From the IMG/VR virus record IMGVR_UViG_3300000176_000001: a stretch of DNA of 64,000 nucleotides; one strand, given 5' to 3'. The stretch comes from a virus. Shown here piece after piece: positions 5,636-7,142 of the stretch (positions within the stretch are counted from its first letter, which is position 1; each line of letters begins with the position of its first letter). The notes below the pieces were generated by a model. The model searched no databases, was not told the origin of the DNA, and saw only the letters and a program-made list of their open reading frames with translations. The translations under genes and the position numbers were made by a program.

Positions 5636-6111
5636 TATTTAGTCTCCTTGTCATGTACATGCAATTGCATAATAGCATAGTGAATCACTTTCATTAGATC
5701 TTTTCTCCAGTCGGCTGGAGAACCCTTCTTACCATAACGTTGGGCATACTTCATGACGTTGCCCATACAGAAGCCTGTACCGTGGCCAGAATCAATAATA
5801 AACTCTGTGGCTTGAAACTTGTTCTGCGAGTAATGCTCGCCGTATGTATTATTAATATACTCTAAAATCTCAGTTATGTACACACTTTCGTTGTACTTAT
5901 ATTGAATAGTTTTAGATATATCTACCTTTGTTATATTAAAAGCCATGTTGATATCTGTCTCAACAAATCTGCCTGTAGGATCAGTAGTACCTGTATAATA
6001 CATGTTACCACCTGTAGATCCAAACATTGGCGTGCCAAGCATATTAATATCATCAGCTGTTAGTGCGCCTATAGCACCATCTTTAAAATAATCCATATCA
6101 TTCTCCATCAT
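5635..6111 (-). CDS. DUF3310 / T7 gp1.7-like putative nucleotide kinase domain protein
   Basis: HY...GFCMGNVMKYAQRYGKK...DLMKVIHYA pattern. Confidence 0.65.
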   Translation of the reverse strand: MMENDMDYFKDGAIGALTADDINMLGTPMFGSTGGNMYYTGTTDPTGRFVETDINMAFNITKVDISKTIQYKYNESVYITEILEYINNTYGEHYSQNKFQATEFIIDSGHGTGFCMGNVMKYAQRYGKKGSPADWRKDLMKVIHYAIMQLHVHDKETK

Positions 6112-7142
6112 ATAAACTCACTCAATCCATTCACAACTATATTGTTATACTCTAAGCCCTGCCAGTGTGGATAGTGCTCACGCGATAAGTGAACTGACTT
6201 AGGCTTCTCCATAAACTTAAAGTCTAACTCACCCTTGCTATTCAGCATATGGCGGTTCCAACGATATAGTTTAACTCTATCAGTCTCTTGTCTCTCACAC
6301 TCAGTGATAAAGATCTTACGCACGGCAGTTCTCTCTTCCCATGTGCCATAGTAAGGAGTTCCCTTATAGTATCCAGTCTTTGGTAGTTTGCGAGATACAT
6401 CCTCAATAGGAAGCGGCTCATAGATCTTTACATTAGTATTAAGCTCTTTTGCCTGCTCAAAGTACTTACGAACCAACTCTATAGTCGCAGTGGCAGGATC
6501 AGCCTGTCTCATTAGATGATGACGTATATCGATATTGCCGAAATAGAATTCTAGCTCGTCATACTCAATATTTGGTATTGGTAAGAATGACTTGAGGCCT
6601 TGCTTAAGGGCACCGTGTAGTGTCTTAAATGGAACTGAGTTTACCATCCAACCTGGACGATACATACAGATAGCATGACTATCACCGATAGCAGCATTGC
6701 GATAGATCGACAACTTATTAGGATCAACAACCGGTGCATTGACCATACGCTTGATATTATCCCAGTCGACTTCATGCCACTTAGGATTGACACTGTCATT
6801 ACCTTCCATGCGCTTAGCTACCATTTGATAGTAGTCGGGGAATGGAATGATTAGTGAGAAGACCGTTCCACGAAACTTAGATAGATTAATAAGGTTATCG
6901 ACAACAGGAGTATCAGAAAGCCCACCGAATAGATTAAGAGTGCCACCCCAATCGTTACCGTGATAAACGTAAAGAACGTCGAACTTATTGAAGTCATCAT
7001 GGTAATTGGTGCCTCCCATATTGACAGTGATATCTATACCAGATTGTTTAATCTGGTCTGCATAGATTACTGCCTGAGCTGCACGGTGTGAAGCTGTATT
7101 ATTTGATATAGTCGCGAACGGTGATGCTAGAAGAGCTCTCAT
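6108..7142 (-). CDS. two-domain protein: beta-glucosyltransferase-like N-domain plus SGNH hydrolase/acyltransferase-like C-domain
   Basis: The N-terminal FDVLYV...LNLFGG...LSKFRGTVFSL recalls T4 BGT YDRLIV..INFFGG..MAKYKSKIYYL; the C-terminal part has IGDSH, FGNID and SVHLS blocks. Confidence 0.5.
   Translation of the reverse strand: MRALLASPFATISNNTASHRAAQAVIYADQIKQSGIDITVNMGGTNYHDDFNKFDVLYVYHGNDWGGTLNLFGGLSDTPVVDNLINLSKFRGTVFSLIIPFPDYYQMVAKRMEGNDSVNPKWHEVDWDNIKRMVNAPVVDPNKLSIYRNAAIGDSHAICMYRPGWMVNSVPFKTLHGALKQGLKSFLPIPNIEYDELEFYFGNIDIRHHLMRQADPATATIELVRKYFEQAKELNTNVKIYEPLPIEDVSRKLPKTGYYKGTPYYGTWEERTAVRKIFITECERQETDRVKLYRWNRHMLNSKGELDFKFMEKPKSVHLSREHYPHWQGLEYNNIVVNGLSEFI

Follow-up and report, generated by a model that had tools for sequence, protein, structure and literature searches.

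A two-domain protein in the modification region of a T4-like phage

We analysed a 64,000-nucleotide stretch of viral DNA (IMG/VR record IMGVR_UViG_3300000176_000001; "the window" denotes this whole stretch), which comes from a lake phage, a T4-like aquatic myovirus not yet in culture: the gp44 protein shares 62% identity with its counterpart in Stenotrophomonas phage DLP6 and 58% with the one in Methylophilales phage Melnitz, and no DNA-level relatives of the window were found among cultured phages. At the center of the analysis stands an uninterrupted open reading frame on the minus strand (6108..7142) for a 344-residue protein, in which an N-terminal domain resembling the DNA-acceptor domain of T4 beta-glucosyltransferase (BGT) (residues 1-145; 6708..7142, minus strand) is joined to a C-terminal domain of SGNH-hydrolase fold (residues ~140-344; 6111..6725, minus strand). 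We refer to it as the BGT-N/SGNH protein, and to the same unit within longer proteins as the BGT-N/SGNH module. As laid out below, it is very probably a catalytic, SGNH-type member of a pathway for the hypermodification of 5-hydroxymethylcytosine (5hmC), working with the product of a nearby gene, unk394. More tentatively, and with slightly less than even confidence, we propose that its reaction is an activating O-acylation, making it a 5hmC-DNA O-acyltransferase that gives an ester leaving group for amino-acid transfer.

The start codon of the gene overlaps the stop codon of the gene upstream (ATGA), and its stop codon overlaps the start of the downstream gene likewise; the gene is thus part of a translationally coupled operon. 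The upstream neighbor (7139..8026, minus strand) encodes a 295-residue pyridoxal phosphate (PLP) enzyme that hhalign places in the M6 gp52-type decarboxylase family (93%, E = 3.1e-7, 215 columns), and that also gives weak PALP and OASS matches. Phage M6 gp52 has been shown experimentally to decarboxylate DNA-bound amino acids (PMC8989533). Beyond it lies unk394 (8016..9200, minus strand), coding for an uncharacterised protein of 394 residues with invariant E269-C270 and C309-C310, for which we found no match in Pfam, the PDB or cultured phages. Across 28 long IMG/VR loci, the PLP gene adjoins the gene for the BGT-N/SGNH protein in every case, and unk394 is present in 27. M6 gp52-type PLP domains, 28-30% identical to the enzyme of the window, also occur inside large reading frames annotated "DNA modification methylase" in Erythrobacter phage vB_EliS_R6L (gp1; L084) and Microcystis phage Mae-JY30, which suggests that further fused DNA-hypermodification enzymes exist in cultured phages.

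The BGT-N/SGNH protein belongs to a large, unnamed family tied to 5hmC phages: an exhaustive search yields about 500 clusters when proteins are grouped at 50% identity and more than 1,400 at 90%, and members are encoded by the cultured Aeromonas phages 44RR2.8t, 31 and 25. The protein matches PHROGs 13881 and 17781, both of unknown function; it has no match in Pfam or among PDB sequences, and we found neither a Pfam model nor any literature for the family. Conservation was assessed in two alignments: A1, comprising 56 homologs at 52-84% identity, and A6, which widens A1 with homologs at 25-49% identity and with fused, multi-domain forms.

The N-terminal half resembles the DNA-acceptor domain of T4 BGT

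An initial annotation of this DNA had proposed a domain swap, in which a BGT-type acceptor domain is followed by an SGNH-like domain in place of the UDP-glucose-binding one. The motifs on which it drew, DFNKFDVLYVYHG (residues 49-62), LNLFGG (residues 69-74) and LSKFRGTVFSLIIP (residues 87-100), are all found in the protein; like the SGNH-like blocks described below, they are strongly conserved and exceed what chance would produce. The proposed line-up with T4 BGT was recovered by hhalign, which aligns residues 29-98 with BGT 28-98 (72% probability, E = 3.3e-5); with the whole-protein profile as query, only residues 30-98 are covered. The BGT family model PF09198 scores 13-14.7 bits (E = 0.002-0.006), below its 27-bit cut-off, on the homologs of three related genomes, and its only matches in those genomes, all of them sub-threshold, fall within these homologs; T4 BGT itself, as a control, scores 327.9 bits. 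Structure comparison agrees with hhalign that the N-terminal half is BGT-like and gives the C-terminal half an SGNH fold where BGT has its UDP-glucose-binding domain, so that the proposed swap is borne out: the protein carries a Rossmann-like DNA-acceptor domain of T4 BGT type. This domain would bind the phage DNA and present a flipped-out 5hmC to the catalytic half.

The same annotation had observed that the catalytic Asp100 of BGT is absent. The aligned residue 100 is indeed Pro; Asp is common at this site among relatives, but the site is not conserved. The exchange of the C-terminal domain, together with the lack of a conserved Asp100, argues that the chemistry of the protein is not glucosyl transfer. 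In a rival view, the protein performs non-acyl chemistry (as a repurposed glycosyl or phosphoryl transferase that uses the cleft between its two Rossmann-like domains in the GT-B manner) or serves unk394 as a base-flipping DNA-binding subunit. A whole-length Foldseek match to T4 BGT spans 337 columns, GT-B glycosyltransferases are interleaved with SGNH proteins among the matches in BFVD, and the invariant residues R20, R207, H208, H209, R251, R271, R275 and R321 could bind phosphates; moreover, the OSK domain of Oskar has an SGNH fold yet binds RNA and is not catalytic, and a UDP-galactopyranose mutase is encoded beside the homolog in Aeromonas phage 25. On balance, we consider non-acyl chemistry or a purely DNA-binding role quite unlikely.

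The C-terminal half has an SGNH fold and several SGNH-like blocks

An AlphaFold2 model built from the 56-sequence alignment (predicted local distance difference test score, pLDDT, 90.8; predicted template modelling score, pTM, 0.89) gives the C-terminal domain a three-layer alpha/beta/alpha fold around a five-stranded parallel sheet, which aligns to SGNH enzymes in structure comparisons. The SGNH-like blocks that had been pointed out from the sequence, GDSH (residues 153-156), GNID (202-205) and SVH (316-318), are present and strongly conserved. In the model, S155, N203 and H318 sit at the canonical places after strands 1, 3 and 5: block I consists of strand 149-153 followed by helix 155-160, with Ser155 at the helix start, and block III (F201-G202-N203-I204-D205) follows strand 196-200 with the spacing GNxD, not the canonical GxND.

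The three residues are assigned predicted roles. Ser155 (GDSH, block I; codon at 6678..6680, minus strand) is the predicted nucleophile and His318 (SVHLS, block V; codon at 6189..6191, minus strand) the predicted general base; both are invariant in A1 and A6, and both codons were checked. Asn203 (FGNID, block III; codon at 6534..6536, minus strand), the predicted oxyanion-hole residue, is invariant in A1 and conserved in at least 90% of A6. More broadly, the residues G153, D154, S155 and H156, the run Y200-D205 (YFGNID), R207, H208, H209, S316 and H318 are invariant in A1, as are S169, P171, T174, L175 and G177 following strand 166-169 in the block II region; in A6, G153, D154, S155, H156, G202, I204, D205, R207, H209 and H318 are invariant. 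Among the homologs, P0125 alone gives a weak Lipase_GDSL match (E = 0.0016; 19.1 bits against a cut-off of 23.6), and the family has a Lipase_GDSL neighbor cluster in the Atlas. The protein itself has no match to PF18748 (the 5-hydroxymethyldeoxyuridine [5-hmdU] DNA kinase family), to AAA or to kinase models, and no P-loop; its fold is that of SGNH.

Relatives of the protein are fused to DNA-modification domains

The protein of the window is unfused. Searching the longer proteins brought up 14 multi-domain relatives, and long forms make up about a dozen of the family's top 150 clusters. One kind joins the BGT-N/SGNH module to HMUDK_hel (P0123, P0124 and P0126; HMUDK_hel at 41-58 bits against a Pfam cut-off of 25), with a variant in which an FkbM methyltransferase and HMUDK_hel precede the module (P0125, P0282); Aeromonas phages 44RR and 31 have a 795-residue protein of the module-HMUDK_hel kind in which the HMUDK_hel match is weak. 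A second kind joins the module to a homolog of unk394 (P0127, P0135, P0299, P0342 and P0382): the unk394 profile matches the C-terminal parts of these proteins with hhalign probabilities of 99.4-100% (E = 1e-21 to 4e-44), and the PLP family of the window is found near these fusions as well (E = 1e-78). In phage SP10, a P-loop kinase of PF18748 and HMUDK_hel share one 653-residue frame; compared with that frame, the module in the HMUDK_hel fusions holds the place of the kinase in a known architecture. A Pfam scan of 20 long forms gave no match to PF18748 in any of them.

The FkbM-type domain (Methyltransf_21) occurs either fused, as in P0125 and P0282, or encoded right after a module-HMUDK_hel fusion (L099:12133-12891), an association suggesting that the modification may also exist in a methylated form. 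Another long relative, P0122 (733 residues), has an N-terminal low-complexity extension of ~390 residues rich in Lys, Glu and Asn, which is unusual for a phage protein; a eukaryotic virus is a possible source.

Among the cultured Aeromonas phages, the homolog in 44RR2.8t follows a gene for a Na+/solute symporter homolog (L001:4408-5931), and that in phage 25 follows genes for the UDP-galactopyranose mutase and for a 358-residue unknown protein (L002:3776-5957). A literature search on DNA modification in 44RR2.8t returned nothing specific.

Related genomes lack a recognisable base kinase and T4-type glucosyltransferases

Gene absences were assessed in relatives that are 84-100% complete, not in the window's own genome. 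PF18748 has no match in five clade genomes (four of which are 91% complete or more), nor in Aeromonas phages 44RR and 25; the control, phage M6, whose gp54 belongs to the family, was detected at E = 1e-19. The HMUDK_hel model (PF18723) likewise found nothing in the five related genomes. T4-type alpha-glucosyltransferase (AGT) and BGT were not found in the related genomes searched, with the T4 controls detected. The premise of a missing kinase therefore holds for the related genomes tested, and homologs of the BGT-N/SGNH protein do occur in genomes without either the PF18748 kinase or T4-type glucosyltransferases. Phages 25 and 44RR2.8t both encode a gp42-type hydroxymethylase; 44RR2.8t showed no BGT or AGT, and phage 25 was not searched for them.

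One neighboring gene was considered as the missing kinase and rejected. The gene coupled (ATGA) downstream of the BGT-N/SGNH gene encodes a DUF3310 protein (PF11753; 5635..6111, minus strand), of which only 33 C-terminal residues resemble T7 gp1.7; its absence between the BGT-N/SGNH gene and the next gene, p283, in many loci also rules it out, and it is not obligatory in the module.

The surrounding island points to 5hmC as the modified base

Reading toward the BGT-N/SGNH gene, the same-strand genes upstream of it encode a MazG/PRA-PH-type nucleoside triphosphate pyrophosphatase (11539..11937; PF01503, E = 4.2e-8), likely an analogue of dCTPase, a "nucleotide modification associated domain 1" (Nmad1/DUF1599) protein (10612..10956; PF07659, E = 4.8e-6), a thymidylate synthase homolog (9969..10625) and a dCMP deaminase (9512..10003; NCBIfam and ComEB-type deaminase matches), all on the minus strand, followed by unk394 and the PLP enzyme. 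The thymidylate synthase homolog is a T4 gp42-type dCMP hydroxymethylase, which makes 5hm-dCMP: it is 61.5% identical to the enzyme of Tequatrovirus HY03 and 25% identical to the Mosigvirus (RB69) type (AV110), and it has Asp at the positions of ThyA-177 and ThyA-143 and keeps Asp169, by residue criteria for typing such homologs taken from PMC13326640. Identification as an RB69-type 5-hydroxy-dCMP synthase was accordingly rejected, given that HY03 is a Tequatrovirus, that AV110 is a Mosigvirus and that Asp169 is kept. With the gp42-type assignment the base is 5hmC, in agreement with the initial annotation.

Downstream, the DUF3310 gene is followed by p283 (4784..5635, minus strand) and then by gp45, gp44 and gp62. 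The 283-residue p283 is a candidate GT-A-like glycosyltransferase, with a DSD and an ED motif (SEDYMF; alignment A4) and weak GT21/Anp1 matches; it belongs to phrog_1574, of unknown function, adjoins gp45, is present in 22 of the 28 loci and may transfer a sugar to the modified base or to any remaining 5hmC.

Several further genes of the island vary among loci. A DenB-like endonuclease IV homolog (phrog_1360; 10965-11537, minus strand) lies inside the modification island of the window and recurs in 4 of the 28 related loci only; its presence is consistent with exclusion of DNA containing unmodified cytosine. A small open reading frame at 9190-9720 (minus strand), overlapping the dCMP deaminase gene over its 3' part, in a different frame, has a weak match to the uracil-DNA glycosylase superfamily; its start is probably internal, and it is detectable in only 10 of the 28 loci. 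Finally, many related loci carry a gene for ~400 residues coupled directly after that of the BGT-N/SGNH protein (L016:11098-12291, L047:11092-12297, L007:11070-12269), which is absent from the window. Its product has motifs like those of DNA cytosine-C5 methyltransferases (a PC catalytic motif, ENAP, QxRER and QNVP), an odd partner where the phage cytosines are expected to be 5hmC.

This setting argues strongly against the view that the protein is not directed at DNA at all, being an ordinary phage SGNH esterase that acts on host envelope polysaccharide or a small metabolite and whose place in the island is accidental. Esterases associated with tails or directed at the envelope are indeed common among phage SGNH proteins, as the BFVD matches reflect. 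The gene is nevertheless coupled within a replication and modification operon with strict co-occurrence, its relatives are fused to DNA-modification domains, its N-terminal domain is BGT-like, and no structural-module genes lie beside it in the window; we regard a role unrelated to DNA as very improbable indeed.

The position of the gene next to that of the PLP enzyme raises another alternative, namely that the protein decorates the end product, by N-acylation of the PLP-derived amine or O-acylation of another hydroxyl. The gene order (unk394, PLP enzyme, BGT-N/SGNH protein) and the ATGA coupling to the PLP gene would fit such a role, and terminal acetylation has a precedent in PaMx11 gp48, which acetylates 5-aminomethyl-dU (PMC8989533). 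That precedent, however, is a GNAT enzyme and not an SGNH one, the module is fused to unk394 or HMUDK_hel and never to the PLP enzyme, the Aeromonas 44RR-type fusions have no adjoining PLP gene in the region examined, and the activation step would be left without an enzyme in the kinase-less genomes. End-product decoration therefore seems distinctly unlikely. The initial annotation had offered two roles, activation of the hydroxymethyl group in place of the missing kinase and capping of the final amine; the fusions of the module, with unk394 homologs in some relatives and with HMUDK_hel in others, favor the first.

Activating O-acylation as a possible reaction

Amino-acid:DNA transferases depend on a leaving group at the 5-methylene: in the known mechanism, a Cys attacks C6, phosphate is expelled from the 5-methylene and the nucleophile adds (PMC8989533). 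With a cassette that lacks the kinase, a conserved Ser-His enzyme aimed at DNA, and the fusions described above, an SGNH domain that acylates 5hmC is the most economical reading. In the scheme that we envisage, Ser155 would be acylated by an ester or thioester of the cell, for instance acetyl-CoA, and would hand the acyl group on, after replication, to the 5-CH2OH of a 5hmC residue in the DNA. In the resulting 5-acyloxymethylcytosine, a carboxylate would be the leaving group, in the role played by the phosphate of the 5-hmdU DNA kinase in thymidine hypermodification; unk394, with its conserved Glu-Cys motifs, would exchange the ester for an amino acid, and the M6 gp52-type PLP enzyme would decarboxylate the added amino acid to an amine. 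Here we infer the DNA substrate, the acyl transfer, its donor and the order of the steps. Such chemistry has parallels elsewhere: TesA, an SGNH enzyme, forms acyl-enzymes from acyl-CoA, Ser enzymes of the MetX type, with a hydrolase fold, activate homoserine by acetylation, and the O-acetyl and O-phospho forms of serine and homoserine are interchangeable as activated intermediates in the biosynthesis of Cys and Met.

The same catalytic residues could instead serve a DNA-directed esterase, which would strip ester-linked acyl or aminoacyl groups from an intermediate, or from a sugar carried by the modified base, for example to unmask a group once transfer is complete or to proofread wrongly modified sites. 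Most characterised SGNH proteins are hydrolases, the top structural matches of the protein are all esterases or thioesterases, and the catalytic Ser, His and Asn are conserved; in addition, the GT-A-like gene p283 lies two genes downstream, and a sugar-nucleotide mutase adjoins the phage 25 homolog. Set against this, the island shows no evident enzyme for forming such an ester on the base, the intermediates known from hypermodification are N- or O-alkyl species and not esters, and the recurrent fusion to unk394 or HMUDK_hel at the kinase position better fits a step that precedes group transfer. We judge the esterase explanation unlikely.

Several observations weigh against activating O-acylation, and some of them touch the SGNH assignment itself. 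The block II Gly of the oxyanion hole is not evident, and the canonical block V Asp, three residues before H318, is Lys315 (Gln in relatives), so that the enzyme may possibly work with a Ser-His dyad only, or with a different acid, for which the invariant E312 and E247 are candidates. Neither PF00657 nor PF13472 matches the protein even at E <= 10, and hhalign of the family profile to E. coli TesA was null; with no sequence-model match, the SGNH assignment rests on fold and motifs. As for the reaction, no donor-supplying gene is present in the island. The absence of the kinase is known only from relatives of the window's phage, and these phages may possibly have an unrecognised type of kinase.

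The connection of unk394 to known transfer enzymes also counts here. Profile comparison gave no significant link between unk394 and either amino-acid:DNA transferases (AADT) or HMUDK_hel: there was no significant match to M6 gp51 AADT, to the fusion partner in 44RR, to P0122 or to P0124, and a richer unk394 profile compared with that of HMUDK_hel reached E = 0.16, which is not significant. What there is comprises an Atlas lead from unk394 to HMUDK_hel/ADDT and an E-x-x-C-C-like motif, which make a relationship to aGPT-Pplase a lead; the need for a leaving group thus rests on the Atlas lead and on this motif resemblance. In Aeromonas phage 25, moreover, the homolog is unfused and lies beside the UDP-galactopyranose mutase gene, and the phage has no match to the C-terminal domain of the 44RR fusion partner (unk394 and HMUDK_hel were not searched there); this neighborhood hints at a sugar-related role in that phage.

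Implications and comparison with known systems

Through hypermodification, phage DNA escapes restriction and CRISPR defences, and the pathways involved supply new DNA-modifying enzymes. To our knowledge, all characterised hypermodifications of the amino-acid type are on thymine and are begun by a dedicated DNA-base kinase. A published metagenome survey of such pathways took the kinase as its seed (PMC8989533), and kinase-less cassettes would therefore have escaped it. What is new here is the two-domain structural support together with the fusion evidence; the pathway would be one of pyrimidine hypermodification, but on cytosine, without the kinase and with a new DNA-directed SGNH component. 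That the protein is the first DNA-nucleobase O-acyltransferase, whose ester leaving group opens a kinase-independent route to an undescribed amino-acid-derived cytosine hypermodification, is a bolder claim that we hold with less assurance than doubt. If it is true, such hypermodification would occur widely among aquatic T4-like phages, and also in Aeromonas phages that are in culture. An activating role would provide a second, acyl-based entry into pyrimidine hypermodification, would imply that myoviruses abundant in lakes and the sea contain a cytosine derivative not described so far, and could furnish a tool for the selective derivatisation of 5hmC in DNA. The protein also illustrates evolution by domain replacement, both in the re-use of a glycosyltransferase's DNA-acceptor domain with another catalytic domain and in the substitution of a BGT-N/SGNH module for a kinase within a conserved multi-domain architecture. 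Members of the family in the cultured Aeromonas phages 44RR2.8t, 31 and 25 make the role directly testable.

Four known systems invite comparison. Relative to the SGNH/GDSL superfamily (for example PAF-AH, TesA, PatB and sialate O-acetylesterase), the protein has no significant sequence-model match, replaces the block V Asp with Lys or Gln and adds an invariant RHH after block III; its SGNH domain is joined to a DNA-enzyme domain, and its presumed substrate is a DNA base. We know of no SGNH enzyme with such a domain and such a substrate, and a literature search found no paper linking SGNH domains with phage 5hmC. T4 BGT (GT63; PF09198) differs in having a UDP-glucose-binding Rossmann domain where our protein has the SGNH fold, and in its catalytic Asp100, which aligns with Pro100 at a position that varies across the family.

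The 5-hmdU DNA kinase (PF18748, often with HMUDK_hel, PF18723, as in M6, ViI, SP10 and PhiW-14) occupies the same architectural position as the BGT-N/SGNH module and the same context of hydroxymethylase, transfer enzyme and M6 gp52-type PLP decarboxylase, and the proposed task, conversion of the 5-hydroxymethyl OH into a leaving group, is common to both. The BGT-N/SGNH protein differs in its unrelated fold, in the acyl group proposed in place of phosphate and in its occurrence in 5hmC- and not 5hmU-phages. Compared with thymidine hypermodification as a whole (M6, PaMx11 and ViI; Lee et al. 2018, 2021), the window has cytosine as its base, lacks the kinase and adds the BGT-N/SGNH protein, and profile comparison detects no relationship between its candidate transfer enzyme, unk394, and AADT. 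Its PLP enzyme is homologous to M6 gp52, and the island would follow the same logic, in which pre-replicative hydroxymethylation leads to post-replicative activation, amino-acid transfer and, finally, PLP-dependent decarboxylation.

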